In this document: positions 19,000 through 53,420 of the stretch, in pieces
Numbering within the stretch: position 1 is the stretch's first letter
Layout of the letters: every line of letters begins with the position of its first letter
NCBI GenBank assembly: GCA_008632985.1
Contig: QPGO01000212.1
Span: forward strand, 62,001 to 117,876
DNA from: Psammoneis japonica
Taxonomy: Eukaryota
Direction: 5' to 3'
Length of the DNA stretch: 55,876 nt
Translations under genes and position numbers: made by a program
The notes under the pieces: generated by a model
The model's input: only the letters and a program-made list of their open reading frames with translations
Told to the model about the DNA's origin: nothing
The model's database searches: none

Positions 19000-19221
19000 T
19001 GTGCTCTGTAAATTAGCAGCACAGTGTGTTGGTGTTTTTCAGCGAAACTGCAGCATTAGTTGGAAAGGCGCAGCCCCAGTTGTGGCTCGAAAAATGGGAA
19101 CAAGGAAGAACAGAAAGTCGGTAAATTTGCGCAAACCCAGCAAATTAGCAGGTGCCTGCACAGTCGCCTGAGTGCAGAAAGTCAGTAAATTTACGCAAAT
19201 TTAGCAAGTTATTTTGTGCTG

Positions 19222-24149: not shown

Positions 24150-24830
24150 ACACCGATCGCAGTTCTCAGTTCTCACAGTGACCTGGTGACGCAGGTTGTG
24201 AGATGACGCACAAGCTCAGCTGCGGTGACTGGATGACACCAGTCGCAGCTCTCACAGAGACCTGATCGCACAGGTTGTGAGAACACGACACAACGCGGCG
24301 GTGATCAGACAGCACCGACGCAGTTCGTCAAGCAACTGATTCACTTGGCTGCGGTGACTGGACGACACCAGTCGCAGCTCTCACAGCGACCTGATTGCAC
24401 AGGTTGTGAGTGAACAACACAGCGCTGCACCTTGCAACGTAGGTTGTGAGACAACGCACAAGCTCAGCTGCGGTGACTGGACGACACCAGTCGCAGCTCT
24501 CACAGAGACCTGATCGCACAGGTTGTGAGAACACGACACAACGCTGCGGTGATCAGGTGGCACCGATGCAGTTCGTCAAGCAACTGGTTGGCTCGGCTGC
24601 GGTGACTGGACAGCACCAGTCGCAGCACTCACAGTGACCTGACAGCACAGGTTGTGAGAAGACGACACAGCGCTGTGGTGAACGGGTGGCACCAACGCGG
24701 TTCGTTGATCAACTGGACAGAACCACTGCAGTGACTGGACGACACCAGTTGCAGTGCTGCAGGTGGTGAGAAAACACACATCGCTGTGGTGATTGGATGG
24801 CACCGATCGCAGCTTCACGGTGATCGCACT
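24150..24830. repeat. Array of repeated stem-loop modules upstream of the Rep/helicase
   Basis: Repeated gctgcggtgactgg-acgaca-ccagtcgcagc and ctcacagagacctg-atcgca-caggttgtgag hairpins, about 4-5 copies each. Confidence 0.85.
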
Positions 24831-24899
24831 GAAAAAACAACCATTTTTGCTGAGCAACTTCTTGAAATTTGTTGAGTCAAAGTGTCAGCTTAAATTAAA

Positions 24900-30424: not shown

Positions 30425-30696
30425 AAGCCACCAAGCAAGGACCTGCAAAAATGCAAGGTCCCAGAAGGCTATGAAGCCTTGACAAGACTCATGAAGGAGA
30501 GAAGCGCCACGCATTTTTCTCAGCAACAGTGCGCAGAAATGTCAATGCAGTGCGCAAACATTGGGTTAGGATGCTCAACCACTGCACAACTGTTTGGCGA
30601 CCCCAACCGTAAAAATGCGGAAATTTCGTAAAATGGGGTGTTTCGATTAGATCAGCACATTGCGCAGAAATCCACACATGTGTCACACAACATCGA

Positions 30697-31167
30697 ATGG
30701 ATTTTAACCAACAAACCAAGAAATGCGAATGCAACCATCACAGCAAACGTAGCAATGGAGAAAACATGGATTTGCAACAACAAACAAAGAAGGCAGACAA
30801 GCCAAAGAAAACTGGTGAGGACAAGAAAAAGGTGCAGACACGTGCGGAACTTCTTCAGTCATTGATGAATGAGGAAGACGAAGAGGAGATTACCCTGGAA
30901 GAAGCAAGAGCGGCGTTTGACCTCACTTCGGGAAATTTTGATGTCACTTCTGCACTTGTGCAAGACAACACGACAGCGGACAGTCATCATGTGGAAACAA
31001 CGGTCGTGCCCAAGGATGGTTCAACCATGGAGGAGCTAAAGGCAGCATGTGCAGCGGCGATTCCACAGCGGTCGGGGAGATTTTTCACCGAGGAGGAGAT
31101 GGCGGAGCAGGAGAAGGAGCAAGCAAAGTCCCTTCAGAAGAAGCTTGGCCAGAAAGAATGGAGTTGA
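30697..31167 (+). CDS. Small charged hypothetical protein (TE cargo)
   Basis: 156-aa K/E-rich ORF with no Tyr, directly after the helicase. Confidence 0.3.
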   Translation: MDFNQQTKKCECNHHSKRSNGENMDLQQQTKKADKPKKTGEDKKKVQTRAELLQSLMNEEDEEEITLEEARAAFDLTSGNFDVTSALVQDNTTADSHHVETTVVPKDGSTMEELKAACAAAIPQRSGRFFTEEEMAEQEKEQAKSLQKKLGQKEWS

Positions 31168-31653
31168 GCAAATTGCAAATGACTGTTTGGCAAAGACAAC
31201 CGCATCAATGCGTAAAACACACACACATGGACTTTCACTTGAGCCGCCGCGGATTGAGTGTGGCCACAAATGAGGACCAACCATTTGTGGCAAAGAAGCT
31301 GCAACAATGCGCAAATTTCGCACATTTCCACACTCACTTAATCCAACGCAGCTTGCCTTAGACAACATCAACATGCACAACTAGACAACATCAATGTGCA
31401 CAGACAGCCTCATGAAACCTCACAGAAGACAGAAGGGTCAGAAGCAAAACAACCAGCACCACGCACTGACGCATGTTAGTCATGTCGCGTGGGTCGCGCA
31501 AAAGTGCGCACCGAAATAACCGTTATGTGTTATAATTAATTCGAACGCCCGGCGCAAAATGCAGCAAAATGATTGGTGCAGGCAATCGTCATGGCTCTAT
31601 TTTCTGATAGTAGCGAGGGCGGCAATCCAAAATCTTTCGGTTTCAGACTTCGA

Positions 31654-31817
31654 TCTAGAGAGTTCCACCTAAAAGAGGAGGAACCAATACGACGCCTCCT
31701 CTCCCTCGCTCTCTCTCTAGTAGAGAGAGTACGGTACATGTAGGCCCTACTCTAGCTAGAGTAGGTCGTAGGGCCTGCCAGAGAGGAGAGAGGCGTGGAA
31801 CGGTACTCTAGCTAGAG
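31654..31817. repeat. Fold-back / palindrome cluster
   Basis: Perfect 20-bp palindrome cctactctagctagagtagg (31746-31765), near-palindrome ctctctctagtagagagag, and outer arms gttccac/gtggaac. Confidence 0.7.
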
Positions 31818-33118: not shown

Positions 33119-33359
33119 GGCGGGTCCGATCTCATGGATGATTTGTAATGATGAACGATGGACGGTGGAGGGCCGCACCACATTGGCATCGATCGCACAT
33201 CACACATCATCCACATCACAATCACACATCACACATCGCGCATGCACGCGCTCATAGACGAGAGACGAGAACTACGGTAACAAGCAGCAGGCGCATGATG
33301 TTGTCGTCTACCGGCAGGGGGGGAGGAACGATCGGCACAAAGCAGCAGCCACACATCTG

Positions 33360-36300
33360 TTGAAAGGATGGTGATGGCACCCTCAAAGATGAGCAGCTGT
33401 CAGAAGCATCTTTTGTCATCGGCACTGCTTTTGTGGACAACCAAGTTCCTGTCCACACTGCCAGCAGCCTGCATCTTTGCAAGGTTTGAACAAGAAGAAA
33501 GGTCAGTGCCGGAGCACACAAACGCTGCATGCTCACCTCTTTGTGGAAAGTGGTGGCTGAGAGTGCACTCAGCACAGACAATGAAACTGAATCCAAGAAA
33601 TGGCAACATGAGACAATGTGGAAGGCTGACCAATGCCTTGCCAATGAAACAGAAATTGTGGGACTTGACTGACTCCCTGTTCAATGTCTGGGGACCTGCA
33701 GCCGCCGCCACCCAATGAGTGAGGACCAAAGAGAACATCCCATCTGGTGTTTCGGTTGCACCCACATTTTGCAAAGACCACTCACATGGCTTTCCTTTGA
33801 ATCTCTGACAGATCCGTTGGAGCAAAATGTGCATCCGGAAAGGCACAAGTCATGCTTGACAAAAAGCAAGTGAAACAGTGAGTCCATGCTTTGTGCCTGT
33901 CAAGCAGACAAGACCTCAGAAACAGTGCAACATCAACACTCTTTCTCTTGCGTGCATTGCAGGGAGTCCTCTGGGTGCCAGCAAGAGCCTTGCAGTGTCC
34001 AAGGGTCTTGTGGGAAGCACATGCTGATGGCTGAACACTGGGACGCATGTGGGACCAATCTGCAGAAGAGATGTCAATGCTGACTTCATCATTGCATGCA
34101 CGCAGGTGCGGTTTGCCATCTTTGGTGAAATGCCATTTGAAGATGTGAAAGGAGCATTTGGGAAGTTCAAGTTCATGACCAGCAGCATTCAGAAGATCAC
34201 ACCACAATTGGTTGTCAGCCTGCATTTTGAAGGCCAAGTCTAATGATGAAGGTTGTGGGGATGCAGTGAAATTGTCAACTTGCTTTGAAGTGTCGTCAAT
34301 GCATCTGGGGTTGTAAATTTTCATGGACACCGCATGATTGGGCAACTCAAAAAATGCTGCATGGGAATGTTGATCGAACATCTCAAAAAGGCTGTTGCAG
34401 ATTTGGTTCCAACTAAAGGGAGAATTTCCACTGCCTTGGCCTGTGCCTTAAATTGGAAATTCAGCGGAATGAGAGTGTGATGATTCAGACAATCCAATTG
34501 CAGTCTTCAACCAGTGTCATGCCTGCTGCAGGGTGTGGTTTGCTCCTGTCTGGGTGACCTCTTTTGGCATGCCATTGCTGTGACTCTTGTGAGCTGCCAG
34601 AGCTGGAATGTTCCAATCACAGCAAGAGGTACAATCATTGTCACTGTGGATGGCAGTTTTCCTGGATGCCCTGCTGATTTCAAGCATTAGCTCCTCAAGG
34701 TGCACTGGAGCATTGGCATTCAAGAATGGTTGAGTGCTGCACATCCCTGGATTGCAAAGCTTGCATTGCTCCACATTCTGTGCAGGGGATCACCACATGA
34801 CACTAGAAATCAACTGAAAGTCAGCTTTGTAAATGTGAGTGACATGCAATCAGTGGATCTTGTTGTTCCCAGCTTCTTTGAAGACCATGACATTAACGAC
34901 ATCTTTCCATCAGTCACAGGAGTGTCCCCACCAGAGAGCACAGTTTAAAAGGTTCAGCCGCATTTGAGTGAGGGCATGTTGCACCACATCCAAATGCTTG
35001 CAGTCTTCAGTTGGGTCACCATCCTGGGCAGTGGCCTGAGAATGGGAGTGTGATGCACACATGGCTTTCCAATGACCCAAACGAGGACCTGACTTGACAG
35101 AGGCAGATGCAGACTCAGTCCACATTTTAATCTTTCCTTCTAAATCTGTTGCTGTAAGAAAGGAAGAGACAGACACTGGAGAGAATGATGTTTGGGATGA
35201 AGCACAAACCAGGAAGCAGCTTCATTGAGTTGATCCGTGTCACAGTCACCATCAAGAATGAGGTCTGCAGAGATTGCATTGCTGACGTAACCCAAGTCCA
35301 CCAACAAAGGGGGAACAGCAGGGGAAGGGGGCACCGTGGGCCTGTCCAAAGTGTTTTTGATTGCAAAGTTGAAGAGCAGTGGTGACATCAATGGGAGCAT
35401 TGATGGCAACCCATTTGTCACACTCTTTGGGGTTCACAGAGGGTTGCAGAGCACCTGAATGCTGTTTGTCCCCATGTCACGATCTGCCTGGCAAAACTTG
35501 ATCTTGCGGAAGAACTTCTTGATTTCTTTGGCTTTTCATGTGTTGTGCAAGACAGTGGCTTTCCTCCTGGAAGCCTTTGCACCTTCCAGCTCCAAGGCTG
35601 CAATCTTCTCCGCCATCTCCCATTCTCCATGTGCAACACCAGCTGCTGCCACCTTCTGGCATTCAGACTGGGCCACACGAAGGGCTGCCTGACATTCCTC
35701 AAAGGTCTCAGGAATGATGAATGAGCCCTCAATCTCATTCCGAATGTTTCTGACATGGCTGACATGGTTGATGTGAGTGTGCATCATGGATGTGACTCTG
35801 CTCAAGATGTGAACTCTGTGTTGAAGCTGAGCAAGTTTGATGGGCCATTCTGGTTTTCATGGTGTGCGCTTGACATTTCTTTGCTGCAGCCAGAGAAAAT
35901 TGTAAAAGGTCTCTGTCTGGTCTCTCAGCCAACTTGTGATCAGGTGTGTCGAGTTCAAGAAGTGCTCTTGATCTGGACAGAATGTCCCAGCTTGCAAGCA
36001 TGGGACCAATGGCATCAAGGTGCATCATCACCTGAGGTTTTGAGGAAGACAGCATGTCTTGATTGCTGGCTTTCGGGTGATCAACAGTTGGGTTTCCAAA
36101 CAGAGCCAATGTGTTGAAATCCACATGGCAAGCACGGTGATCAGAAGTGGCATGACACCCAAATGCCTTGTAACCTCCAAAATGAGCAGTGGCAAGGGCA
36201 CCTGGGGTGGCAAGAATGCAGTCTAATTGCTTTGAACCTCAAGTGCATGTTGAAAGTTCTGTGTTGCCCATCAAGTTGAAGAGAACATCTGACAAATCAA

Positions 36301-39100
36301 ACCACTGTGCAAGTAAAGCAGGAGACTCAGTGTCAACCATAAAGTCCACATTGAAATCTCCGAAGAGGATTGCCTTGTGATTTTGGTCCACGAGAAAATC
36401 CTGGAGCAACCAAGATAAATCCAAGCAGAATGCTTTCTGAGGATCAGTGTTTTGATGGCCTTGTTGGTGCAATGATGATGCCTGCTGGGCATGTGCAGCA
36501 GTCCTGCCGGGAGTCTTTTGGTTCTTTGAACAAAGATGGTGGCACGACACAAACATGACTTGCAATCTGTTTTGTCTGTCATAAACTTGGATGGACCAGC
36601 AACCCAGGGTCAGATCCCTGACTCCAACATCTGTCAGAGATTGAGTTTCCCGAGAAAAGAGCTGTGCCTCCTGGCTTGTGTCGAGTGGTGAAAGGAGCAG
36701 AGCTGCATGAGAATGTGCTGCGACCATGACTTGTTGAGTTTTGAATGGCTGACCGACAAGTTGACAGAATGTCACACTGAGTGGTGTCCAGGCACACTTC
36801 TGAAATTCCAACTGCATCAGCTTGAATCTTGTTGGCAATCTGGCAATGGCCCAGAATGTCTCTGCCTCTTTTGTCAAATTTGCACCCATTTGCGTTGAAG
36901 GCATGCAGTCTCATGTGATGAGGAAGCTTTGGTTGGAGATCATCACCGATTGACTCGTTTGTTTGCAGGTGAGAGAAATCAACAATGCGACGTTCCACAG
37001 AGGGGCTGCAGCTTCCACCATCTAAAAGTGACTGCCAGGCTTGTGCAGAAGAGTCACAGCAAACATCACTGCTCATGAGTGGGTCATGCTCCTCCAAGAA
37101 GAAGACTGGGGCTCAGAGCAATGCACAGAGTTGAGTGCAGGGAGAGGGACAAACTGCAGGGACGAGAAGGACAAATTGTCAGCACCAAGAGGTGTGTGGC
37201 AAAAGACATGGGCAAGAGCAAGGGAAGTGGTGCCATGTGGAAGAACATCCAGAGGATGCCTGATTGTTTGTGGGGGTGGAGGTGGCAAAGTCCAACCCCT
37301 TTTCAAAAATCCTTCTCCTTGTCACAAAGATCTCTGGAGTGATCTGGCATTTCCATGTTGTTTGGGCATTTTCCCGCAGAGCTCTGTGCAGTTTGACTTG
37401 CCTGCAGCAGTTGGACAATTTGATTCATTTGTGCCTGCATGCCTGCCAGTTGCTGGGTGGGCTGTGACTGCAAGGCTGCCATGTCTTGGGTGTGTTGTTT
37501 GGCAAACACAGAGCTCAATGCCTCCATGTCCTGGGAGTGCTGTTGGCAGAGCTCTTCCAAAGCCTTGTCATTTTTCTCTTGCATCTTGGACACTTTTGCC
37601 ATTTGTGTCAAGCAAGGGAGGAGCTTGAGGTGGACTGTGCAGCTTGAGCACAGGAATGTTGGGGTGTTTTTCACCACTGCGTGTGGCAGAAATTGCAAAG
37701 TGACATTCGTGCTGTGGAGACGACACCCAATTGGTCACGTTGACATTCGTGATTTGGTTGTTGTGGTTGTCAAGGATCTTAACATCCTTGTGGTGAGTGA
37801 AGAGAATCTGCTGCAGGACTTGCAAAGAGTGGTGACAAGGGTCATGGGCTCACACAATGCCTCTGGGCCATGAACATCAAAACGGATGGTGATCTCTTCA
37901 AAATGATGCTCTTTTGGCTTGGAAGCAGGCTTGAGGGATGAGTCATCCACAGTGACATCGTCTGCCACAGTGGAATTGTTGGGAGGAGCAGGGGTGTGGC
38001 TGCCGTCAGTGACGGAAGAAGACGCCATGGTGGTTGGCTGTTCTGTGGAGGACCTGGCATTGAAAACATGCAGGCAGGTTCAATGCAAATGTGCACAGAA
38101 TTGTGCAGCAAGAACACAACAGATGAGCAGCACTTTGAAAAGTGCTGGAAGCTTCAAGTTGATTGATGCCATTGCTGCATTGTTGGTGCTTGTTGCGGAT
38201 GATAGATCATGACAGGCTTGGACACTTGGGCACACATTTGGAGAGGCTCCCAATGCTGTGATTGGTGCCTGACTGGTGTGTTGTTGATGTGCGGACATTG
38301 TTCCACCAATTCTGGCATGCCCTCCTCATCATTGTTGTCATTGCTGCACTTGTCAATGTCATGCTGGTTGTTGCAACACTTGTTGCTGTCACACTCAGCT
38401 TTTTCCACCTCCATTTGCTCAGCTGAGAGAAATTTTTTAGACTGAAGAACAGGGGCACACATTGCAATGGAGAAGTGTCTTGCTCCACGAGTGCCTCTTG
38501 TCTGGGTTAAAAGTTAACATGTGGAGTGTCTCCACCCAAACATCTCCTTTTTCACCAATGCCTCTGCAGCAACACATGCCAAGCTCAAATTGTGTCTCCC
38601 TGCAGCTGAGATTGCCACAGCTGCAGAAGCAATTGTCCATCATTTTTGATTTGGCTTGTTGGATGAAATGTTGGTGATGGTGTCAGCTTCTTGCTTCTGT
38701 TTGTCCAGTGGCACAGTTTTTCCATCCCAGCCCCCCATTGCAACCAAATGCCCACCTTGATCAACCAACAGCATGCAGATGCAAAGTTCAGCACACTTTT
38801 GGGAGCCTGGAATGGGGTGAATGTTGGCCACTTGGCCAATCACTGAATGAATGTTGACTCTCGCACTTGCCCGTGTGACAAAGTTGCTCCATGAAAAGTC
38901 AGCTCCACTTTGAAATGCCAGATGCCATGAACAATGCACCTGTTCATTCTTGCAAGACATTGGTTCAAAGAGCACACACCTTGTGTGCTTTGTGGCTCCA
39001 GCTGGAACATCCCAGAAATGACCTCAAACAGCCATTTTGTCATTTAAAAAGGAGTCATTCTGTGAAAATGCTTTGAACAAAAGTCATTTTTAATGGATCA
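33360..39100 (-). mobile_element. Heavily decayed non-LTR (LINE) retrotransposon with APE endonuclease and RT, possibly Ambal-like
   Basis: RT remnants GTGQGSGNSP (~34420-34448), CIDDTS, LELPKCSF, HKTLG. APE remnants FNANG, VGISE, ILFGDFN (~36350-36370). Many stops and frameshifts; strong CpG and TpA depletion. Boundaries approximate. Confidence 0.7.
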
Positions 39101-39390
39101 CAAAGCACTTGATTGGTCATGGAAACAAGCGTTGGGCATGGCGAATTTGTCCAACTGATGACTTCAGTTGAAGTTTAAGAACAACCAATTGGAGAAACAG
39201 AACATCTCGTTCTTAGCGCCAGTCAGAAATTGACACCATGTGAGGTGTCAAAATCAATTCCAACACCATGTGTGGTGTCAAAATTTTTGTTTTAATGACA
39301 TCATCTGCAAAAGTGCCTCATGAGCCCCAAATGACCATGTGGATGAATTCTGCACACTTGCATTTTCACACTTTGTTTGTGTTCCAGTCA

Positions 39391-39552
39391 AACAAATCTC
39401 GATGCAACACAAGGACAAGTGCAACACCTTAAGCCTGAGAGAAAGCAAAGATGCTGTCAATGTGAACCTAAACCTGATTAGATTGTGGGGGAGAATGATC
39501 ATCACCACGTGTGTCTTCCCCTGACCAGGGACAGACCACTCCATCCAAATTC
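39391..39552 (-). repeat. Copia 3' LTR
   Basis: Aligns without gaps to 44477-44638. Confidence 0.9.
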
Positions 39553-39847
39553 CTTGGGTCCCCACAAAACGGCAACGACAGTGCCGATTCGTCCAAAACA
39601 AGTGACATCCTCTCACAAAGAGGCAAACCACAAAACCCAAATTAGACCGCCAGCCGAGCTGGCTTGGGAGGCCGGAGCACGTGGACGCAAGTCACAAGTG
39701 CCCGGCCCTGGTGTCAGGACCCCACCAAAAGATGCAAGAACACAGTTTCCAACGCTGCTCTCCCATGACCATTTTCGCAAGTAGATCTGCCAAGTTCATT
39801 TCTGCATCCTCCTTTCCAACACGAATGACACCCGCTGCAACTGCCTC

Positions 39848-41998
39848 TCACACCACATGACAGTTGATGGCATTGTGCTTCTTGTGCAAAACCGATTCAG
39901 GAACACTCACATTCTTCACAACACCACGATTGTCATAAAAGACACTTGCTGGTCCTTTGAGTGGTGCTCCGAACATCCGCAACTTGTGTTGTAGAGCAAC
40001 AATCAATTCCTTGCAAATCCGCATCGCGACCAACTCACTCCCAAACGTCGCTGACTCGACTGTGTTCTGCCGCTTGCTGAACCACATGATCAGTGCATTG
40101 TTGACAAATGTCAAGATTCCACTGTGAGACCTGCAAGTTACAACATTGCCTGCATGGCCAGCATCAACAAAGGCACAGATGTTTGCCAGGTTGCCACAAG
40201 GCTTTGGTGCTTGCGGCGGCAGTTCCTCTTCAACGTCCCCGCAAAACTCAGTCCAATCAGCATTCAAATTGAAAATGTGCTCATCAATCACTGGCTCCTT
40301 TGGATTGAACCCAATGCGTCCAACATTCTGATGCTTCTTCACATGTGCAAACACATGATGCAATGCTTCAAGGTGCCCCTTCCTTGGATTAGCTTGATGC
40401 TGGGACAGAATTGAGACTTCATGCAAGATGTCAATGTGGCCCAACTCGATTGCCCAGCGGCAAATTCCCATCAACTGCAAGTGCCTGTCCACTAAATCCA
40501 GGCCCACCTTGTCAGTTACATCCAGCTCTGGTTTGCACCTTGGGGGCAAAGGATCCTTCACGCCATTCTTCAAAACTTCTCCATTCCCATCCTCATCCAA
40601 GAGACCTTCTGCGGTCTTCATCGCCATCTTGACGTGTGCTCTTGGGGAGCTCGCCCAAATTGTGCAACCATCCTCGGTTTGGACCTTTTCGACGTTAGCT
40701 CCAAGGTGGACCTCTGGTTCTCCTTCACTGCCAGGCTTCACGGTAAAGTGCTCACCTGTGGCAGCAACAACAGACTTTCCCTGATGGGAGATGATTGGAA
40801 TGTCGTTGACACAAACCAAAAGCATCTCACAATGCTCGTGCCCATCCTCTTGGGTTGCTGCACACAGATGAACGCCAGGGTCCACTCTCATTGATTCAAA
40901 GCCCAAGTTGTGTGAGACTGATGCCAATGCGGACCTCCAAGAGCATCCCAAGCTCTTCAGACCGCACAATGCCCGAGTGACAACAAGCACCTTTCCTTGG
41001 CATTTGCCACACTCCTTGCCACCTTCGAACCATGTCTTCTCTGCACACGGTGCGTTCAAGTGTGCATTCTCCAGATCCATTGCCATGATGTCGACTCCAT
41101 TCAAAGCTGCCAGCAGAAACCCCAGACGTGTGCTGTCTCTAGAAATGATGCTTGAGCATGTGATCAATGATGGAGCCTCTGTTGTGTGACCTCCTGCCAC
41201 GAATCTTGCCTTCCTGGTAAAGTCCATCTTGACATCAAATGCCAGGTGGCACCTGATCTCCTGATGGCCACGCAGAGTTGCACTCTTTCCTTCCCGCACT
41301 GCCTGTGGGGTCTCAGCCTCATGCTTGCGCCATGCCACCTTTACCTTTTCCATCTCCCATGACAAACTGCCATCTTTCCAGCTGACCAGCAGCTTCCAAC
41401 CCTTGGCAGCAATCCTCTTCTTCTCCTTCCTGTCAGTGGCACACATGATTCCATCAGAGATTGGTGCAGCATTGCCCGTCTTGTTGTGATTCTGCATCTC
41501 ATGCAAGACAGAGCATTGGTTGCCTTCACTGTTGACCTGAGCAAACACATTCTCAGCAACCACATTGGCCGCACACTTGTCTGTGGTGCCGTCGGTGCAC
41601 TCCACTTCACACTCAAGAGTGTCAAACAATGGGTTTTGGTGTTGAGTTCCAATTGGACGCCCATCCTGTCCTCTTGCTCGTTTTGTCATGACACCTCGCC
41701 TCTCACCGTCGGTTCCAACATCAAACATAAGTTCCACACCCAAGCATTGATCTGTCGCTTGTTCGTCATCATCCTCTGGCCATTTGTCTGACAACAACAT
41801 GTCCCCGGCAAGCCCATGTTGACTTCTGTTGGGTTCCATGCATTGCCGGTCAAGAGCACAACCGGTGAGTTCTGCTCCTCCCATTCTGTTGGAGAACACA
41901 AGATTTGAAAGATGCAACTGTCCCCTTTGCAGTGAAAGGGATGAAAGCCTCATCAGCTTCAATGCCAAAACCGTTTCGAGCATTGTAAGGGTTGTCAT
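39848..41998 (-). pseudogene. Copia pol (RT-RNaseH), Tyr almost eliminated
   Basis: Copia RT/RNaseH motifs present; one Tyr counted in 716 aa. Confidence 0.9.
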
Positions 41999-44474
41999 GT
42001 GCAGGCATGTTGTGCGCCCACAACTGATTAAGGTTCAAGAGTGAATGTTCCATGTCCATTCCAAACCAAAGCATCTGATTGCCAACCAGCAGATGCTCGC
42101 GAGTTGTTTCCAGATCCGTCCATGCAGCGCAACAATGTGCCACGGGAGCCTGTTTAATCGGCTCACATGAGTCTAAAAATGGGTGAACTTCACACACTTC
42201 ATTTGTTGGCTCCATGAGTTTCCAATTTGCTCTGGCACAACATGCATCCATGTGAGCATCACATTCATTCAGAGCAACAAAATTGGGTGTCGTCAAATTT
42301 GTCATTGGGGTGGAGCTTGTCAATCAAATCACATGTTTTGATGTCACAGCAATGCACCTCATTGTTGCCGTTTCATTCAATTGATAAGATGGGTGGGGTT
42401 TGGGTGGCAGGAACAAGAACAATGCAACCAAAACATGCAAGCACACCACATGCGCCAAGATTCCAGTTGCTGCAACCACCCCCAGCAGGCAAGTGGAACT
42501 GTGACAAGCTCCACGACCGAAAGCATGACCGTTGCATCTGCCACAATCACGGTCAGCACCGCAACCATGACCGCTCACTTCATTCTGCACTTGTCTGTTC
42601 TGTGCACCTTGGCCCTCTTGATGGATCTGGGCTTCGGCTGCATGCCTGCTGCCCCTGTCACATCTGCACCATCCTGCTGAAGAACCACGACCACCACCAC
42701 ATCCTCCTTGTCCCGCTTGTTTGCAAGCTTGGAAAACACAGTCAACCCCTCCATTGAAATGGAGTTTGTCCCATTCCTGGGGGGAAAAACTTCTTGTGGG
42801 GTCAGACACATTGACCCCATTGATCTTGGTGGTGTGGTTGCCACCTCCACCTTGGCCTTGATGTCTGCCGCATCCTCCGCCGTGACCAAATCTACCTCCG
42901 TGACCACGGCCCCTTTGGAAACCTTGACCGCTGCCACCACCATGGCTCAATTTGGAAATTTTTCATTTTGTGCAATGTCGGGCTTCTAACTGAGCACCTG
43001 TGTGCAAACAAGAGACTTTGGATGAGAAGAAAGCACATGCCCCTGTGAAGTCTTGAGGGTGCTGACTGCTGACAACAGTCGTTGCTGCAATGAGATGAGG
43101 GTCATTGGACCGGATTCCTTTCAAAAGGATCTCCACCTTCTGCTGTTCTGACTTGCGATCATCCGGGGTTTGTGCAAAGTGGCAAATGTGCTGGCAAGCT
43201 TTTCATTGAACTTTTCAAATGGGAGTGACCCTTCCTTCTTGTAAAACAGCGATTCAACAGTGGCCGTCACCAAGTGGATGCACTTGCCAAGCTTGCCCTG
43301 TCCATTGCAATGGTTGACCCATGCATTGAATGCTCCATGCCCATTCTCTGTTTTGTTGAATGGTTCAATTCAAGCCCATCCAGCAGTGTCAATCAAGCAT
43401 TCTTTCAACATGCGAAACATGCTGTGATTGTCCTCGTCAAATGCACTGCCATTCAATGGCAACTGATGCATGCACTCCTGTTGAGCATCCGTAAACTCGG
43501 CTGGCACTGGCATGGTCCTCACCACATGTCAAAGTGGCTCTTTCAATGTGCCAAACTTCTGTGCCAAAAGATTCAAGAAGCGTCTTCACAGACATCAAAG
43601 TCCTCGGACTTAAATTTGACAAGACTGCTTGCCAATGCGTCCGACTCTGTACATTCCTTTTTGACACATTGACCGTTTTGAGCCGCAGCCATGGCTGCTG
43701 CATTAAAGTCCACCGCAATGAGTGCTTGGTTCCTTTTCATGCAATCCTGGCACCACCACACTGGTGACTGTAAGTTCTTGATTTGAACAGTGCCAAGAAT
43801 CACATGGCCATCTTCCACAGCACGACGAGCCACCCTTTGCGCCAAGTCTTCAACATCATGGTCGTTCTCCATGACAGCAATGTTTTCCAGGGTCACAAAC
43901 CCTTCACAGAAAACCAACCTTGCCCTTGCATTCTGGTCAACAACACCACAAACCTGTGATGCTGTGTCTGCGTCAGCTGTTGTGGCCAGAGCCACAAGTG
44001 CCGATGCTGGTGCTGCTGCCGCTGCCATCCCACAATGAAGAAAATGTGAATGTCCCATGTGGGGGAGCATGCAGCTGTGAGTCTGCATGGTCATGGAGGC
44101 TGCACTTTTCCGGTGTTGTGACAATGGGTTCACACAGCCACCCGACATCAGGATGATCAGTCCTGTGTCATTTGATTCGTTGAGCATGCACTCAGGCGTG
44201 TCACCCAATGCCGCAGTCCCTTCACACCCATTGCAAATGTGAAGACAGTGACTGTCTTTGTGAGCATTTTCCATTGCAAGCTGTTCTGTGGATTGCACAG
44301 GCAACACAAGATGCATCTTTGTGTGCATCAATCCGAGCTCCAATGCAACGCGTGCGGTTCAGCACCAATTCTACAGCTGCAGGTTCCATGCAAACAACAC
44401 AATGAACAACCGTTCATGACAAATTGTTTTCACAGCCGTTTTCGACCAGCGTTTCACTGATGGCTGTGACAAAG

Positions 44475-44639
44475 TGAATAAATCTCGATGCAATGCAAGG
44501 ACAAGTGCAGTGCCTTGAGCCTGATAGAAAGTAAAGATGCCATCAACGTGAACCCAAACCTGATTGGATTGTGGGAGAGAACAATCATCACCACGTGTGT
44601 CTGCCCCTGACCGGGGACAGACCACTCCATCCAAACTCA
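44475..44639 (-). repeat. Copia 5' LTR (TG...CA on the minus strand)
   Basis: Minus strand begins TGAGTTTGG and ends TTTATTCA; aligns to 39391-39552. Confidence 0.9.
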
Positions 44640-45900
44640 TTTGCAGCAACATCTGGTTGTGCCACAGTGGCATTTGAAAGTGTGCGTTTTTGCTCAAAAT
44701 TCCCATGCAAACTGCCTCCACCATGGCATCTCATCCAGCATCCCCCCCATTGCCAGAATGTTCCCTCCAATGACCCACATCACCTGTGAACGTGCACAGA
44801 GACGAGACGGACATTGGCAAGAGTGACAAGCTGCAGAGCTCCCTGCAAACCAGCAACAGTGGATGACACGTGTGCCAGCAAGAAAGAGTGTCAGAAGCAG
44901 TTTTCAGAGAGATCTGCTCATCTGTCTGGGTCTGACCATCATCCATGCACTCGGCATGCTGACACAGAGAGATCTGCTCATCTGCCTGGGGGTCTGACCA
45001 TCATCCATGCACTCAGCATGCTGACACCATCCCCTGATCTGCAATGTCTTGCAAGACAATGCAGGTCACAAAGAAAGAAGAAATGCAAAAGCACACCACA
45101 CCCAACATGAAAACAACCTTGCCAATGGAAAGGTGCTGTGGCAAAACGGGCGATGCAAGAAACGGCCAAGCTTGCAATGCACAAAGAATTCACAAAGGAC
45201 AACAATGTCTTCACAAAGTCTCTGATGGCAGAGCAGGGCATGTGCACTGATCTGTTGAAGCCTTTGACAAAAAAGTCAATGGCAGTTTCCAACAAATCTT
45301 GCAGGTCAATCGAGTGTTGAGCCAAAGAACAGCTCTGTCAATCAACAAGCAACAAAAAAAGAACAAGGGATGCTCTGGCAAGTCACAATGTTGCTGATTC
45401 TCATCTGGCAAAATGGGGCTGGATGGAAATTCACCATGGCATGTGATGCATCAAAAAGGAAGTGACAGCAGCCCATCAGACAAAACAGCACTTCTGCCAC
45501 ATTTTGTTTTGCGTCTCCATGTGCGCCGCTCTGCAGCACGATGGAATCTGAAATCGTTTCACAGAGCTTCTTGCACATCTGGCTGAAGGGAGATGAACAA
45601 TGTTGGGTGGACTGAGTTGAGGATTTTCTTCTGGCTTATGCTGCTGGATTGTCTCAACTGCTGCTGCCTCTGCTGCGGAAATGACGACGATCGCCGCTTC
45701 CCCAGTGCTTCGAGGCCAAACTCATCTGCCATGATCACACTGGGAAAAAAAGACCAAATCACCGCCAGAAGCAAGTGTTGCAGTGGAGACTGCTGAGGCA
45801 GATGCAGCAGCACAACAAAAACAACAACTGCGACAATGACACAATGACAACAGCAGACTCAGACACCGCCATGTTCTACACACATGCATGCAGAAAACAT
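44640..45900. mobile_element. Unclassified TpA/CpG-depleted TE remnant with a ~59-bp tandem duplication (44906-45026)
   Basis: cagagagatctgctcatctg...tctgaccatcatccatgcactc.gcatgctgaca occurs twice; composition matches the neighbouring TEs. Confidence 0.4.
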
Positions 45901-46204: not shown

Positions 46205-49200
46205 ATGAGTCGCCGTGTCTTTGGACAAGCCATGAAGGGCGGTCCATCCAAGTACCAGCGTCAAATGGGACACGGACATTCCAAACGAGAGGCAGAAAAG
46301 AACGAGCAAGAACTGGAAGCTCAACGCCGTGCCGAGTATCGTCGTAAACGCTATGCTCAAGGTGAAGCCATTGACGTCAAGTTTGGGTATGAACGATACA
46401 ATCACACTACTTCCACGGAACCGAGTCGTCGTGGATGGCTATTCAACATGTTGCCGACGGTAAGTCAATAACACTATGCATATATGAATTATGGGAATCA
46501 AAATAGAGCTCATACTGTATGTTTCTTATACGCTTGTTATTTATCCACAGACAATTGCGTCGGGTGCTTCTGGTGGCAGTGGAGGAGATGATGGCTCTCC
46601 GGCTGGTCCAGAACGTGCCGGATTGGACTTGTATTTTCGTACCGAGTCGGGTTCAACCTTTAAAAGCTCCGTGCTGTACGATCCGTACTTTTATGTCATT
46701 CCCGCTGTTACCGGAGACGATTATGCGGTACAATTTGAAGCGCTCATTTCGATTCTCTTGAGAAAATACGAAGCTTACGGTCTCTCCAAGGTGGATGTAG
46801 TTCCCATGTTGGATCTAGATCAGCCCAACCATTTGGATCCAAAACTGCGTCACGGACGGCCCATGCTCAAGCTGGTCTTTAGCAATGTCCAGCAACTCAT
46901 GGAAGTCCGCAAGCCTCTCAAGGAATTGATTCAAAACAATCAGAAACTTCAACAAGAACGAGCCATGCGTTTTGATGCAATCGAAGCTGTATCCCAAAAC
47001 ATCTTGGACACCTTGGTGGACATTCGAGAGTACGACGTGCCCTATTTGGTGCGCGTTTGTACCGACTTGAACATTCGCGCCGGGGCGTGGTACACGGTGA
47101 CGCCCAATCCACACGACACGGGCGTCACCTTGAGTGATCAAGATGTCGAAACCAAGGCCAATCCATCCTTTTTGGCTTTTGACATTGAGTGTACCAAGGC
47201 GCCGCTCAAGTTTCCCGATGCGGCCGTCGATTCCATCTTTATGATATCCTACATGGTCAATGGACGAGGCTATCTGGTTTTGTCTCGCAGTGTCGTGTCA
47301 CAGGATGTGACTGACTTTGAGTACACGCCCAAACCGTCCTATCCCGGGCCCTTTACCATTTTCAACGAAGAGTCGGAAGAAGCCCTCTTGAAACGATTCT
47401 TTGCCGAATACCAAAAGCACAGTCCGCAAATTGTCGTGACGTATAACGGAGACTTTTTCGATTGGCCCTTTGTGGAAAAGCGCGCTGCCTTGTATGGACT
47501 GGATATCTACAGTGAAATGGGAGTGGAGCGTATTGGAGATGGCGAATACCGGGGAGATGCAGTGTTCACTTGGATGCGTTTCATGGGTGCAACGGGATTC
47601 CTACTGCCACAGGGTGCCCAAGGTCTCAAGGCGGTGACAAAAAGTACAAGCTTGGATATGATCCAGTCGAGGTGGACCCGGAAGATATGGTGCGATTTGC
47701 GCAAGAACGACCGGTCCACATGGCGACCTATTCTGTGTCGGACGCTGTGGCGACCTTTTATCTCTACGAAAAGTATGTTCACATGTTTATCTTTTCCTTT
47801 GCACCATATTCCCATGGGACCCGAAGATGTCTTGCGTAAGGGGAGTGGCACTCTGTGTGAAACATTACTCATGGTTCAAGCGGCAAACAAGAATATCATT
47901 TGTCCCAATAAGCAAGTTGACGCCTTGGCCAAGTTTCACAATGGGCATTTACTGGAAGGTGAAACGTATATCGGTGGCAAGGTGGAGTGTCTCGAGACGG
48001 GTGTCTACCGTTCGGACGTGGAGTACAAGTTTGATTTGAAACCGAGCGCGTTTCAGGGTTTGATTGACAATGTTGATCGGGATCTACCTTTGCTATTGAA
48101 GTGGAGGGTGGAATGGATCGGACCGAGATTTGCAACTATGATGAGGTAAGCTCATGTTGATTATTGTTTTCTAGTTTTAGTATTGCACTCACGTTATTTT
48201 TCTTTTCTTTTTCTATCAGATTCGTTGTCAGATTGTCGAGCAGCTCGAGATGCTTCGCGACCGACCCAATCGGGTGAGAAGCCATATGTTTACCATTTGG
48301 ACGTTGGTGCCATGTACCCAAACATTATTCTAACCAACCGCCTACAACCGGGAGCCATTGTGGACGACGCTACCTGTGCTTCGTGTACCTTTAATCAATC
48401 CAAGAATGACTGCAAACGCAAGATGGACTGGGTATGGCGTGGTGACTACAGCCCTGCCACCAAGAATGAGTACGACCGTACCAAAGACCAGCTCTCTCGC
48501 GAGACCTTTCCGATGGCAGACATTTTCATGAGTTGGACGACAAGGAGAAGGCCGGGTTGGTTGCCAGCCGTCTCAAGACCTACGCACGGAATGCTTATAA
48601 GAAAACCAAGGTGACAGAGGAAGTGACCCGCACCGACACGGTCTGCATGCGAGACAATGACTTTTATGTGGATACGGTGGCAGTTTCGTGATCGTCGTTA
48701 CGAGTACAAGAAAATGACCAAGACTTGGAAAAAGCAAGTTGGCAAGGCGACGGACCCATCGTCGAAAAAGGAGGCCGAGGACAAGGCTTTGGTGTACGAC
48801 TCGCTTCAAGTCGCCCACAAGTGTATCCTCAACAGTTTCTACGGATATGTCATGAGGAAGGGAGCGCGCTGGCGTTCCATGGAGATGGCTGGCATTGTCA
48901 CAAAGTTTGGCGCTGACTTGATTACGCAAGCTCGAGTGTTGGTGGAACAGATTGGTAGGCCGTTGGAGCTCGACACTGACGGTATTTGGTGCATCCTACC
49001 AAAGAGCTTTCCAGACGTGTACAACTTCAAGACGGTGGACGGGTCCACCTTCAAACTTGAGTATCCGTGTGTCATGCTGAATGCTGACGTGCACGACAAC
49101 TTTACAAACCATCAGTATCAAACCCTCAAGGATCCGGAGCGCGGTATTTACGAGAGCAGAAGCGAATGCTCCATTTTCTTTGAAGTTGACGGCCCTATCG

Positions 49201-52200
49201 TTGCATGGTCCTTCCGGCCAGTACCGAAGAAGGGAAGCTTTTGAAGAAGCGATACGCCGTATTCAACTTTGACGGTTCACTTGCCGAGCTAAAGGGATTT
49301 GAGCTGAAGCGACGAGGAGAACTTGAGTTGATCAAGACTTTCCAGTCGCAGGTTTGAACGATTTCTCGATGGAAACTCTCTTGCCGAATGTTACGATAGC
49401 GTTGCGGAAGTTGCTAATCATTGGATCGACGTGTTGGATACACGTGGTGAAAGCCTCGAGACGGACGAGCTCGTCGACCTCATTAGCGAGAACCGAAGCA
49501 TGAGTCGCCAGCTGGAAGACTACGGCGACCAAAAGGGAACTTCGCAGACCACGGCGAGACGTCTTGGAGAGTTTTTGGGAGCGGAAATCATCAAGGACAA
49601 GGGTCTTAACTGCAAGTTATCATCGCAGAGCAGCCGTATGGTCTCCCAGTGACGGAGCGTGCCATCCCAACTGCTATTTGGAAAGCCGAGCCCGCAGTTA
49701 TGAAACATTACCTGCGAAAGTGGCTTAAAGCACCCGGTCTCAACGACGACGACTTTGACATTAGAAATGTACTGGACTGGGAATACTACGCGGATCGTTT
49801 AGGGAAAACTATTCAGAAGATTATCACTATCCCGGCTGCGCTGCAAAAGGTGTCCAACCCCGTGCCGCGTGTGCCCCATCCGGCGTGGCTGGATGCAAAG
49901 GTCAAGCAGCTGAATGATCGCTTCCAGCAACAAAGTATTTTGAGCATGCTTACGGTCAAGCCGGTGGTGAAGAAGGCAGCAGCTCCGGCGTTGGGAGATA
50001 TGGAAGATTTTGGCTCAACTGGTAACCGTTCAAAGCGCCCCGTCGTTCATGCTGCACGACGAACTGAACGCGTTACGGCTCAGAAGTCCCCGGAAAAGGC
50101 CACCGATACCACAAGCAATGCCCGTGTAGAGCTGTCTCAAGAAAATTTTGGTGGCTGGCTCAAGCATAAGAAAGCTCAATGGCGAAGAGTAACAGAAAAC
50201 GCCTGAAGCAAAGTGGCAACAGCTCTACGCGGAAAGGATATCCTGCAATCGCGAGCGCCGTACAACCTGCAAAGAAGCCTAAGCATCAAGTCAGCAGCAT
50301 GGAAGGATACATACGAGATGCTACTTTGGCCCGTAACCGACACGAGTGGCATGTCATTGAAGCTCGTGAGTTATCCAAGTCAGAAACTGGTTTGTCATCA
50401 AACGGAGAGTTTCTGCTGTGGGTCATGGTGGGAAATGAATCGCTCCTCAAGGTACATGTGAACGTCCCCCGTGTTTTGTACGTCACAACGCTTCAAGAGA
50501 TCACGCATGATTCTGCAAACATCATTTCGATGAAGCGATTGGAGAAGCATCTGCCACAGGGAAAGAGCTCAGCGTTCACATACGAGATTGCAATGTCGGA
50601 GCACGTTTACAGAAACAAGAAATGGTCTAAATATCTACGTCCCGTCACTTCAGCTGGGATCGAGGACGAGTCGCGCCGCGAGGCTGTCCTAGAGAGCATA
50701 TATGAAACTGGGACTCCATTGATGTTCCGTACGTTAATGGATTTGGGATGCGTACTCAGACTCTCACCATCTGCCGCGTCCCAAGACAGGAATCGTAAGT
50801 CTTACGCCTTGTCGGATTTACAGCGCGTCAACCGTCCGGCCGAAGGAGAGTATCTTAGCAAACATATGGCGTACAAACGAATCTTTATTTATGTCGCTAC
50901 GAATACAAAGTCCAAGACAGGAATCGTGGCCATGTTCGAGATGGACGGTGGCAAAGGAGAAAACAGGCCTGATGTGACACGGCCAGATATGCTTGAGAAA
51001 CAGAGTTTTCAAATGAATTCATCCTTGACGGTATGGGTAGTAAAGCCAGGGTCTTCCCGAGGCAGAAGAACTTATCAATCAAGAACTGCGAATCCTTGTT
51101 CGCGCAGCTACTGGAAACGATCACGGACCTTTCGAATGAAGCGGAGGCTTCCGGCCAGAAGTCTGAGTACAGCAGTCTATCCCCCGGAGCTACTGTAACA
51201 TTTCGGAGTTGAAGTTTGTCGACAGTGACAAGCAAGCGTTGTCTGGCGTCAACGAGGTGCTCAGCTCGTACGGCCAATCTAATCAAGGTCCTACATTTGT
51301 GCTCCTCAATAGCAGCAAACCGTTGCCGTACCTCCGTCGCGCAGTTCCAAGTTTCAATTCGTTTCCGATCATCAGTTTGCCTTTTCCACCTGGTCCTACC
51401 CACAACCCTTCTTCGATGAATCTGCCCGCATTGAATTGGGAGCCAACGGCAGTGCAGCTCTGCATGGAAGCATACTTCTACATGGGCGTTGTTTCCTTCC
51501 CCAAGCGCGTCTCTTATGCCAGATATGGGCAGGTGCCGGTTGGAAATCTCGATCAAGATGAAACTGTTACATTGTACGACGTTGGATTTGGTCGCCAGCT
51601 CCAAAAAAGTCGGACTATATCGTGGGCAAGCGCGACTCATCCTGACTTTGGAATATCGTTCTCCAAGGTGATTGCGAAACCGATGAAACTTCCAACCTTT
51701 CAAACCAAAACGAAATTTGGGGCGACGATGATGAGCTCATTAGTCCGGTTGTTCGTCATCCTGGCTCTTATCGTTGTGTATGCGCTGAAATCGATATACA
51801 AGACCTGGCAATTGCTGCACTGACGGATGCTGCCGCTGCCGCTACTCTCCCTTCTGCCATGAGCCAAGCGGGCAACCCTACGTCACCGAGCAGCGTTACC
51901 ATGTTGATTCCTCATTTGACGGAATGAATTCCAAGGCTGCGGGACCCTTGGGGGACGAAATGTCAACATCCGTATCACTTCCGATTCTGCGTGCATTGAT
52001 CGGAGCTTGGCTTCACGCCTTCGAAGCAAACAGTCAAGTTGCAGACGACATGCTCCATAACGTGTATCGTCTTGTGTCGACGCCAGAGCCACTATTGAAT
52101 GACCCTGCTCTCCATCGAGTGATCCACTCATTGATGAAAGCGACTTTCTTTCGACTTCTTGGTGAACTGCAAAGACTTGGTTGTCATATCGTTTGTGCGA

Positions 52201-53420
52201 CATTTCGCAAGGTGATAGTCGCTACGAATAAGAGTAGCCTCTCCGACGCTGAGGAGTATGTCAACTTTGTCATTTCTACGATTCGAAATCGAAGCGGAGC
52301 ATCCGAGGGTAACCCGATGTTTGCAGGACTAGGTCGCATTGAGTTGCGTGCAAGCACCTACTTCTCACATTATCTCTTTCTTGACGAATACAACTACGGT
52401 GGTATTCATCTCGAGCGCCGTCAGCTGGAGGAGGGCGAAGAAATCGATTGGTTGATTCCAAGTGAAGACGAGGGTGGTATGCCAATCGTCCCAACGGTGG
52501 TAAGCGGTTGGAACATGATGCATTATTTGGGGAGCGAAATTGCGCAAGAGTACTTCCGAATCATTATTGGTCGCTTTTCTAAGGATGTTCTCCGGAAGCA
52601 GATTCAGCTTGAGGAGCGAGATGAAAACGCCATGTTGGAGGACGACGCTCTAAATACATACAAGAGGAAATTGATATCCAAGCACGCTTTGCTAACTACC
52701 TGACGAGAGCTGTGGGAGAGATCGAAGAGGAGGGAGGAGGGCCGGAAAGTTTTCCAGAATTACCCGGATCGCATCTCGTACTCACCAATCCTACCTTGGA
52801 ATTCATCAAGAGCGTCATGGTTGTATTGGAATTGGATTCCGACGTACAAAAGGAAGTACACGTATTGAAGAAGAGCTTGCTAGCTCAGACCGGAGTTCAG
52901 GAATATTCCAATGCTGCCAAGTGGGAAAACCCTTGCGCCTCTTTCGTCTTACCCGACGTGTTTTGTATGGAGTGTCATGAATGTCGTGACGTGAATCTCT
53001 GTGATCTCCCGCCACTGAATGAAGAAGAGAGAACTCAATTGGTAAGTCTCGTGGACAGAACTTGTCATCGCTAGAGGCGTGTCTACAATGTATCTCATGT
53101 GGTCGACTCCTTCTTCGTTACAGAGACAGTGGGAATGTGAAGACTGCGGCACCCCGTACGATTCGCAGGACATAGAACGAAGACTTGTAGATCTTTGCAA
53201 TCGAAAAGCCATTCGTTATCAGTTGCAGGATGTGCGGTGCACCAAGACTGGTGCAGTTGGGACGAGAGCCATGTCACGGCAATCCGATTGTTCGGCTGAG
53301 CTACAGCTGGACATCCCTCGGGAACAGGCATTGTCACAGTTGAAGATTATCAATAATCTTGCTTCGTTTCATGGCTTGGAATGGTTGGCCGAAATGACGC
53401 AAGACCTGCTCAAACTCTGA
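46205..53420 (+). CDS. POLE: DNA polymerase epsilon catalytic subunit; introns 46460-46550, 48146-48219, 53042-53123; many apparent assembly frameshifts
   Basis: [16 protein letters not shown], Exo[16 protein letters not shown], Exo[12 protein letters not shown], motif [19 protein letters not shown], motif [12 protein letters not shown], motif [11 protein letters not shown]-terminal Cys clusters and YQLQDVRC. Confidence 0.97.

Follow-up and report, generated by a model that had tools for sequence, protein, structure and literature searches.

Loss of TpA dinucleotides by transition to CpA or TpG in integrated transposons of the diatom Psammoneis japonica

Analysis of a 55,876-nt stretch of the Psammoneis japonica genome (here called the window) and of related transposon copies revealed that, once elements have inserted, TA dinucleotides of their chromosomal copies are changed to CA or TG at individual sites and on either strand. 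The changes are probably made by a host mutator that turns A:T into G:C at TpA in integrated transposon DNA, the putative enzyme being an adenine deaminase targeted through chromatin. In the literature searched, the process is known only from viral insertions of one rhizarian alga; it is now described from diatom transposons. The present data add a series of copies graded from untouched to saturated, a preference that extends to the base next to the dinucleotide, and the distribution of loss along elements.

RESULTS

A TA-poor Copia remnant beside a TA-normal host gene

The focus element is a degenerate Ty1/Copia remnant (Table 1). Its LTRs, detected as a direct repeat (39391-39555 and 44477-44641, 87% identity), were delimited by alignment with related copies and measure 164 nt each. 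The Copia-type reverse transcriptase (RT) has at least 120 long homologs with 51 to 67% identity. Its RT/RNase H part contains a single Tyr in 470 amino acids (aa). No integrase match was found in the element, in which about 1.3 kb upstream of the RT is deleted, and Pfam gave no match for either 5' open stretch. On the other haplotype (G000:C227), the 3' LTR carries a deletion of about 90 nt.

Table 1. Features of the window
Feature	Position	Strand	Basis or remark
Second TA-poor block	11990..31690	.	TA O/E mostly 0.03-0.37, CpG largely retained
Helitron	24894..30421	+	Helitron_like_N, PIF1
TA-poor repeat domain containing the focus element	33300..45900	.	TA O/E 0.03-0.18, CpG O/E 0.14-0.54, sharp edges
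3' LTR (left repeat), degenerate Ty1/Copia element	39389..39552	-	Repeat comparison, related copies
pol remnant with reverse transcriptase	39851..42034	-	PF07727, E 6e-9
Segment between two internal deletions	41356..41805	-	About 260 bp and about 1.3 kb missing relative to a 6.7-kb related family
Broken 5' coding region, gag side	42327..44358	-	Open stretches of 212 and 261 aa; probable gag, from position
5' LTR (right repeat)	44475..44638	-	22 mismatched bases relative to left LTR
Host DNA polymerase epsilon gene	46488..52700	+	TA-normal control, TA O/E 0.54-0.64, Tyr 4.2%

The second TA-poor block is missing from the corresponding place of the other haplotype. It contains the Helitron, whose 1442-aa frame has 0.3% Tyr, and a second direct-repeat pair (12213-12321 and 17036-17144). 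The best named relative of the DNA polymerase epsilon comes from the diatom Fragilaria crotonensis (61%). TA O/E is 0.03 to 0.3 in elements versus 0.5 to 0.65 in genes, and TA polymorphism between haplotypes is 19/43 in the element versus 1/176 and 9/202 in genes. CpG decay is the main source of haplotype differences in the focus element. Exceptions to the sparing of host DNA are the flank of one young element (L119, see below) and duplicated copies of methylase genes, which are TA-poor.

Differences between the two LTRs

An earlier note on this DNA rightly described the LTRs as diverged; the 22 mismatched bases represent 17 events rather than the roughly 15 sites given there. The five single differences of TA versus CA/TG that it quoted were recovered (39393, 39431, 39446, 39469, and 39480), TA being retained three times in the left and twice in the right LTR. 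The other 12 events comprise five CA/TG doublets, two transitions at CG steps, three other transitions, and two transversions. No TA step is common to both LTRs. All four doublets reported previously are present, and a fifth is formed by the first two bases of the LTR. Their origin had been considered ambiguous between TA and CG, and comparison with 26 related LTRs leaves it so at 39455 and 39496. The doublets at 39389 and 39408, which read CG in 21 of the 26, are best read as CpG decay, and that at 39425 is TA-derived (TA 3, CA 13, TG 10). Both supposed CpG transitions do lie at a CG step, but at 39461 all 26 related LTRs read TG, and the CG may be the derived state.

By outgroups, 6 of the 17 events are TA>CA/TG, and about half of the pair's hypermutable differences are CpG-derived or ambiguous. 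The claim that the pair diverged mostly at TpA was therefore overstated, real as the five single differences are. Taken alone, the pair shows borderline TA enrichment, with 5 of 10 single transitions in the TA/CA/TG class versus 23% expected (P = 0.058). When 17 repeat pairs were pooled, the enrichment was clear: 83 of 147 fell in this class versus 25% expected (P = 5e-16).

A target-site duplication was sought at the focus element and not found; its 4-bp flanks differ (CAGT and TTTG), so that the two LTRs of this pair only presumably stem from a single insertion. The right LTR ends in TG...CA, and related elements mostly have CG...CG; the TG...CA ends may be a product of CpG decay.

TA is the ancestral state

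Comparison of related copies demonstrated that the direction of change is from TA to CA/TG and that TA is ancestral. At all five TA sites of the focus LTRs, TA, CA, and TG co-occur among the 26 related LTRs. Between the TA-rich copy L080 and its relative L106, 123 TA steps correspond to 55 CA, 54 TG, 8 TA, and 6 other dinucleotides. In the focus element, none of 17 conserved RT Tyr columns still reads Tyr (9 His, 7 Cys, 1 Phe); other conserved RT residues are retained (G 23/23, K 14/14, W 6/6). Among 240 RT homologs, one (P0131, an ENA record, possibly from the same species) has Cys or His in 14 of the 17 Tyr columns, and five others have them in 4 to 5 columns.

A RIP-like process creating TA out of CA/TG is extremely improbable as the source of this pattern, and so are GC-biased conversion and an artifact of sequencing or assembly. 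The observed direction is opposite to that of RIP: near-fixed CA columns read TA twice in about 5,100 site-copies and TG columns six times, and polarization by the family did not give the CA/TG-ancestral outcome that the earlier note had named as its refutation. C>T and T>C changes at non-TA steps stay below 1%, unlike the expectation for GC-biased conversion. Three young loci with unmatched flanks (L112, L113, and L118) may be recombinants or misjoins. Contigs of sequencing run X1, which is possibly the source sample and thus checks base calls only, reproduce the TA-poor letters; a 567-nt RT contig differs once, and all 40 of the contig differences listed (78 more lie beyond these) are the other haplotype's allele. 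Another run, X2, hardly covers the window.

Mutational spectrum and sequence context

At 285 TA-type sites, the copies read TG 1439 times, CA 1357 times, TA 597 times, CG 3 times, and another dinucleotide 4 times. The change is almost purely a transition, and TAY, with a pyrimidine 3' of the A, is preferred: the A>G rate is 0.52 and 0.49 before C and T versus 0.27 and 0.31 before A and G, with a like trend in the young family. The diverged subfamily members L040 and L050 were excluded from the family-2 spectrum. CpG loss in family 2 affects 18% of CG-type site-copies, and TA loss is about 8-fold faster than CpG decay.

Polymerase eta produces A>G at AA as well as at TA, in strand-coordinated clusters. 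Error-prone resynthesis of methylated repeats under repair, by such a Y-family polymerase with its WA hotspot, fits poorly with this spectrum, and we regard it as improbable. TA steps are lost in 82% of site-copies versus 0.7% for AA>AG, which given equal 3' context does not exceed CA>CG or GA>GG. Processive strand runs were sought and not found (lag-1 autocorrelation, -0.08 to 0.11), and transversions at TA are nearly absent. What the polymerase would explain is that AT>GC changes outside TA are somewhat more frequent in mutated (hit) zones (13/7955 versus 3/8423 in spared zones) and have the same 3'-pyrimidine preference.

Timing, strand, and independence of the changes

Exact 4-bp target duplications, read by eye, flank 10 of 14 family-2 elements, and the LTRs of these elements differ. 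Of 20 stretches drawn, L031, L045, L046, L048, and L049 had no full repeat pair. Among 15 young copies, TA steps account for 38 of 347 positions and for 116 of 175 LTR mismatches; L112, L113, L118, and L136, with flanks unmatched or an end missing, were excluded from this count. The post-insertion timing proposed earlier for the focus pair is thus borne out on other copies, the pair itself having no target-site duplication. Transposition has passed on a small number of TA>CA/TG states, as in L110, where four TA changes are present in both of its identical LTRs.

CA-versus-TG agreement between copies matches permutations (standard deviation [sd], 0.035 versus 0.035 in 12 copies excluding L040 and L050; second test, 0.058 versus 0.056 in 12 copies). 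LTRs within an element agree in 38 of 61 cases versus 53% between elements (P = 0.16). A transcription-linked strand bias was rejected. Five young copies had more TG than CA (257 versus 165) in the raw counts, a difference that disappeared once sequence context was corrected for (intercept, -0.14; 95%, -0.29 to 0.01), and palindromic contexts yielded 282 TG and 288 CA. Action on both strands and independence between copies, both claimed from the focus pair, therefore hold on these copies.

These data bear on ADAR-like editing of element RNA or cDNA, in which mutated copies would be passed on by transposition. Two A_deamin genes exist in the genome, and the inherited states of L110 would fit. 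However, LTRs of single insertions differ at TA steps, sense-strand CA and TG are equally common, the states of copies are independent, and the Helitron and flanking DNA are affected too. As the main source, such editing is largely refuted and in our judgment very unlikely; the earlier note had argued against it likewise, and the LTR-pair and strand data agree. Its warning that LTR dating overestimates age was also justified: the process raises raw LTR divergence about 3.3-fold, and LTR-based ages in such genomes are about threefold too old.

Spatial distribution of TA loss

In one young family, the changed TA steps form contiguous zones that occupy the 5' interior (0.6 to 2.4 kb) first and extend to a varying degree in the 3' direction. 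Of 19 copies, 12 are heavier in the 5' interior, 3 are low in both parts, 4 are high in both, and none is changed in the 3' part only (L131 to L135 and L137, partial or solo, were excluded). The number of changed TA steps per copy ranges from 6 to 151 among 11 young copies. Ten of the 19 copies were chosen by RT score, which favors copies whose 3' part is intact. Because the first 11 copies were the best RT matches, the polarity could have been an artifact of selection; copies found by LTR, with 40 of 60 LTR candidates scored, gave the same pattern and make this less likely. Among nine chosen in this way, 5'-heavier, low, high, and 3'-only copies numbered 4, 1, 4, and 0.

Hit zones (9/7955) and spared zones (8/8423) have private GC>AT and transversion changes at equal frequency, which indicates that spared zones were not overwritten; conversion or polishing as their origin was excluded on this basis in six copies. 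CpG loss is 5.8% in hit zones versus 2.0% in spared zones.

LTRs beside TA-rich DNA are spared in the young family, and the LTR TA count tracks flank TA O/E (rho, 0.78; 28 LTRs). Loss leaks about 300 bp into neighboring DNA, as seen in one flank, that of L119. No empty-site allele was found for this flank, and paralogs served as reference instead. Within 300 bp of the LTR, 17 to 18 of 20 to 22 paralog TA steps are CA/TG, versus 2 to 4 of 9 to 15 at 300 to 600 bp. Genes adjoining insertions can be mutated as well. TA-rich multicopy paralogs escape: a paralog family with 40 matches retains TA, and identical young elements escape too. Loss seems to begin in the interior of each element and to spread outward. 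The 5'-interior-first order, the spared edges, and the leakage point to chromatin spreading rather than homology pairing.

DISCUSSION

Proposed mechanism and candidate enzymes

In the adenine deaminase reading favored here, the zones would correspond to silenced chromatin, probably with CpG methylation, that nucleates in gag. A TadA/ADAT-like enzyme would deaminate A to hypoxanthine, and replication would fix the change. Replacement of Tyr by Cys or His would inactivate elements permanently without new stop codons and so could serve genome defense. Some young copies still have intact frames and few changes, so that any such defense is incomplete or lagging. Dead elements retain long open frames and are annotated as Cys/His-rich genes.

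ADAT2 is a housekeeping gene. The candidate ADAT2-like gene (L062) has HAE and PCxxC motifs and, judged by eye, Asn at the matching motif. This Asn is not discriminating, because the key Asn of the DNA-editing ADAT2 is described as common in eukaryotic ADAT2s (PMC10354150). According to the same source, the sole natural DNA-editing ADAT2 favors GAA, not TA. The two A_deamin genes are further candidates. The Atlas search assigned the second of them to a generic family only, and no expanded or unusual TadA-like paralogs were present among 9 and 5 matches.

A>G at T[A] equals T>C at [T]A, and since strand bias is absent, the damaged base could be T. Oxidized and O4-alkylated thymine miscode, pairing with G. 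The same targeted post-insertion process could thus act on thymine at R[T]A, for example, through a DNA methyltransferase or dioxygenase with a secondary activity in silenced chromatin; TA loss would then be a by-product and not a dedicated defense. We consider this unlikely, though the least so of the alternatives. Damage to A and to T cannot be told apart from sequence, TA loss and CpG loss share their location, and the genome has 27 DNA_methylase matches, several with a motif that we take to be DNMT4/RID-like. We know of no enzyme that modifies T at TpA. The genome gave no TET/JBP match and no MT-A70 match, the control being equally silent in both searches. Diatom DNMT4 is described as RID-related and of unknown function, and it was found in no non-diatom species of a transcriptome set (PMC9998398), yet Bigelowiella natans has the same spectrum.

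More tentatively, the deaminase may be a dedicated natural DNA adenine editor, recruited to silenced chromatin, with nucleation in gag and a spreading front. Such an editor, present in a rhizarian alga as well and perhaps of ancient origin in SAR eukaryotes, would parallel RIP but act on A:T pairs, a proposal for which we claim less than even confidence. A natural adenine editor of chromosomal DNA, if true, would be a new branch of genome defense and a lead for base editing.

Comparison with known systems

RIP of ascomycete fungi likewise destroys repeats after insertion by dinucleotide-specific transitions on both strands and can leak past their edges. It is triggered by duplication, requires RID/DNMT4, and acts in the sexual cycle. 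RIP changes C to T and creates TA, whereas the diatom process removes TA and loses Tyr. Copy number alone does not seem to trigger it here, given the TA-rich 40-match family and the spared LTRs beside host DNA; the duplicated methylase copies, on the other side, are TA-poor.

The engineered adenine base editor TadA8e is described as causing genome-wide A>G/T>C changes at TA (PMC13225742); it is an untargeted laboratory enzyme and offers an analogy of chemistry only. CpG decay of methylated transposons, related to diatom DNMT5 methylation (PMC9998398), is present here too, as a separate, slower process on C that accounts for two of the focus doublets. The literature search, with subscription journals mostly outside its coverage, returned no report of TpA loss in diatom repeats.

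The closest likeness is to NCLDV and virophage insertions of B. natans (bioRxiv 10.64898/2026.01.13.699255), where TpA>TpG/CpA also occurs on both strands, almost only as transitions, and in silent foreign DNA only. The effect is uneven between lines there and between copies here. According to that preprint, the de novo rate is raised about 1000-fold, only some lines are active, and A-deamination by ADAT2 is proposed; TpA-poor coding sequences with transposon domains are also mentioned. The words "diatom," "LTR," "retrotranspos," and "trinucleotide" are absent from its main text. The systems differ in that B. natans is a rhizarian alga with two viral regions and a de novo measurement, whereas diatom LTR elements and a Helitron are affected here. 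Loss is near saturation here (TA O/E down to 0.03), versus 0.45 in B. natans. The preference for TAY, the apparent start of loss inside elements, the spared edges, and the leakage into a flank are described here, and the supplements of the B. natans study may hold context data. The diatom and B. natans thus share a spectrum, for which a common enzyme, with ADAT2 as proposed there, would be a candidate.

TA loss in the window and in the focus element

The window covers positions 62001 to 117876 of contig G000:C214 in a 91.4-Mb assembly. The best named relatives of its polymerase epsilon gene come from diatoms, with 61% for Fragilaria crotonensis and 48 to 56% for the rest. The observed/expected ratio (O/E) of TA steps is 0.5 to 0.65 in the genes of the window and 0.03 to 0.37 in two blocks (~12 to 31.7 kb and ~33.3 to 45.9 kb), whose borders are sharp to ~100 to 300 bp. 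Contig C227 represents the other haplotype; flanking genes match it at 97.8 to 99.6%. Approximately 20 kb of TA-poor mobile DNA (window 11990 to 31690) is absent from the corresponding place in C227, which has a different TA-poor stretch of ~3.3 kb there. At window 52001 to 54000, close to where the polymerase gene ends, haplotype divergence is raised and transversions are numerous. The region from 2754 to 7200 is perhaps a DNA transposon partly affected by TA loss.

The focus element, a minus-strand Copia remnant (PF07727 match) in the second block, has two internal deletions relative to a related family. Re-alignment of its long terminal repeats (LTRs) confirmed the differences listed in an earlier note and resolved the events into 5 TA versus CA/TG, 5 CA/TG doublets, 2 transitions at CG, 3 other transitions, and 2 transversions. 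On its own, this pair shows a marginal excess, with 5 of its 10 single transitions in the TA class versus 23% expected (p=0.058); pooling of 17 repeat pairs gave 83 of 147 in the TA class (p=5e-16). The element lacks a target-site duplication, so this pair does not provide a fully secure internal control. Haplotype divergence is 3.5% in the element versus 0.3 to 0.7% in the nearest genes, with polymorphism at 19 of the 43 TA steps still present and at 89 of the 188 CG steps. The polymorphic TA steps indicate that TA loss continued past the haplotype split; as so few TA steps are left to change, CpG decay is now the dominant process. Contigs from sequencing run X1, which may be the source sample, repeat the TA-poor letters, and all 40 differences shown (of 118) correspond to the C227 allele.

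Location of the features
Feature	Location	Strand	Details
LTRs of focus element	window 39389-39552 and 44475-44638	-	22 differing bases, 17 events
Inverted repeats	window 2754-2881 / 7073-7200		10-bp subterminal arrays; enclose 781-aa DUF7869 frame; TA O/E 0.3-0.56
Zinc deaminase domain fused to 2OG-Fe(II) dioxygenase (DIOX_N)	L061:313-1785		one open frame
Two A_deamin (ADAT1/ADAR-type) genes	L076 (G000:C40), L077 (G000:C79)		only generic family confirmed

TA is the ancestral state

Among 26 related LTRs, TA, CA, and TG all occur at each of the five TA-versus-CA/TG sites, for which a TA ancestor is the sole single-step explanation. By the same LTRs, two of the five doublets are CG derived, one is TA derived, and two are ambiguous. 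The focus reverse transcriptase (RT) kept Tyr in none of 17 conserved columns (those with Tyr in 60% or more of the 120 homologs), with 9 His, 7 Cys, and 1 Phe instead, and fully retained its Gly, Lys, Trp, and His columns. Comparison of L080, a TA-rich copy from another family, with its TA-poor relative L106 revealed that 123 TA steps correspond to 55 CA, 54 TG, 8 TA, and 6 others. A gain of TA resembling repeat-induced point mutation (RIP), the outcome that would contradict the proposed direction, was not seen among the copies of family 2. These results bear out the proposed change from TA to CA/TG: the TA loss is real, and its first interpretation is correct.

Timing and sequence context

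Twelve family-2 elements show a star-like relation with 6 to 8% divergence. Target duplications of 14 elements, read by eye, comprise 10 exact 4-bp duplications, 3 differing by transitions, and 1 element with none. Most family-2 LTRs (L032-L044, L050) have CG at both ends instead of TG...CA. The 285 TA-type sites read TG 1439, CA 1357, TA 597, and CG 3 times, and 18% was lost at 480 CG-type sites, a hazard ratio of 1.74 to 0.20 (TA type versus CG type). Both site classes were drawn from the polymorphism itself, so that the non-circular tests are L080/L106 and the younger family.

Sharing of CA-or-TG outcomes between copies was no greater than in permutations, as expected from the independent change per copy proposed earlier, and agreement between LTRs of one element was 38/61 versus 53% between elements (p=0.16). 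Some changed states are inherited: L110 carries four in both of its identical LTRs. The earlier warning that LTR dating overestimates age also held, since raw divergence in 11 pairs was 0.079 versus 0.024 once TA and CG sites were left out, a 3.3-fold inflation.

In family 2, A>G at TA is ~2-fold commoner before C/T (0.52, 0.49) than before A/G (0.27, 0.31); TA retention is 0 to 5% in ATAC, ATAT, ATAG, and GTAT and about half in CTAA and TTAG. AA>AG reached 0.7% per site-copy, comparable to CA and GA contexts. Correcting for context left no strand bias, and the changes did not form strand runs.

Spatial pattern

All six family-2 LTRs keeping 11 to 16 TA steps adjoin TA-rich DNA, and the 21 adjoining TA-poor DNA keep 1 to 6 (rho 0.78). 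The younger family, whose copies are 98 to 99% identical around RT, represents the TA-loss process caught midway. Relative to one real TA-rich copy, comparison of 0.6 to 2.4 kb with 4.2 to 6.2 kb in 19 copies revealed 12 more changed in the former zone, 3 low throughout, 4 high throughout, and none changed only 3'. This result covers a single family, in which 40 of 60 candidates were scored and three loci may be chimeric. The subset of nine found by LTR search split 4/1/4/0. Several copies with matching target duplications lie in TA-rich flanks, which places the beginning of the TA-loss zone inside the element. Private background changes were as many in spared as in hit zones, whereas CpG loss was ~3-fold higher in hit zones. 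In the one flank examined, within 300 bp of a 5' LTR, 17 to 18 of 20 to 22 TA steps present in three paralogs, which themselves keep TA, read CA/TG; few did beyond.

LTRs of the younger family end in TG...CA, with 5-bp target duplications. Three young elements (L112, L113, and L118) have unmatched flanks; L112, L113, and L111 have a common 3' flank, and L113 and L130 a common 5' flank. L112, L113, and L118 may be recombinants or assembly mis-joins.

Mechanism and comparison with known systems

Clean transitions, the strict 5' T, and the 3'-pyrimidine preference fit a miscoding lesion, which would be made at TA by an enzyme sensing the adjacent bases. Adenine deamination would be the simplest such lesion; alternatively, the damaged base may be T rather than A. 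The zones, together with their correlation with CpG loss, suggest that targeting could proceed through spreading silent chromatin. The genome contains an ADAT2-like gene, a TadA-like gene, a deaminase-dioxygenase fusion, and two A_deamin genes, none of them obviously special. The C79 A_deamin gene has a DCHAE motif, which we take to be ADAR-like. An engineered TadA produces A>G changes at TA sites across the genome (PMC13225742), in line with adenine deamination. Amphioxus ADAT2 prefers GAA (PMC10354150), which counts against ADAT2 specifically.

Duplicated DNA methyltransferase copies (L071-L073; G000:C301, C297) are TA-poor (O/E 0 to 0.2) and partly broken, unlike the TA-normal other methylase genes. 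Background on diatom DNMTs is contained in PMC9998398. TpA loss in diatoms was not found described in our literature search. In the ENA Copia protein P0131, which shares 58% identity with the window RT, 14 of 17 conserved Tyr are Cys/His, a hint that the same process may operate outside this assembly.

TA loss resembles RIP in logic and differs in the defining direction of change. In Bigelowiella natans, viral DNA integrated in the genome is reported to hypermutate de novo from TpA to TpG/CpA, for which the authors of that study propose A-deamination (bioRxiv 10.64898/2026.01.13.699255). TA loss here is a variant of this recently reported kind of hypermutation, new in host lineage, transposon target, and spatial pattern.
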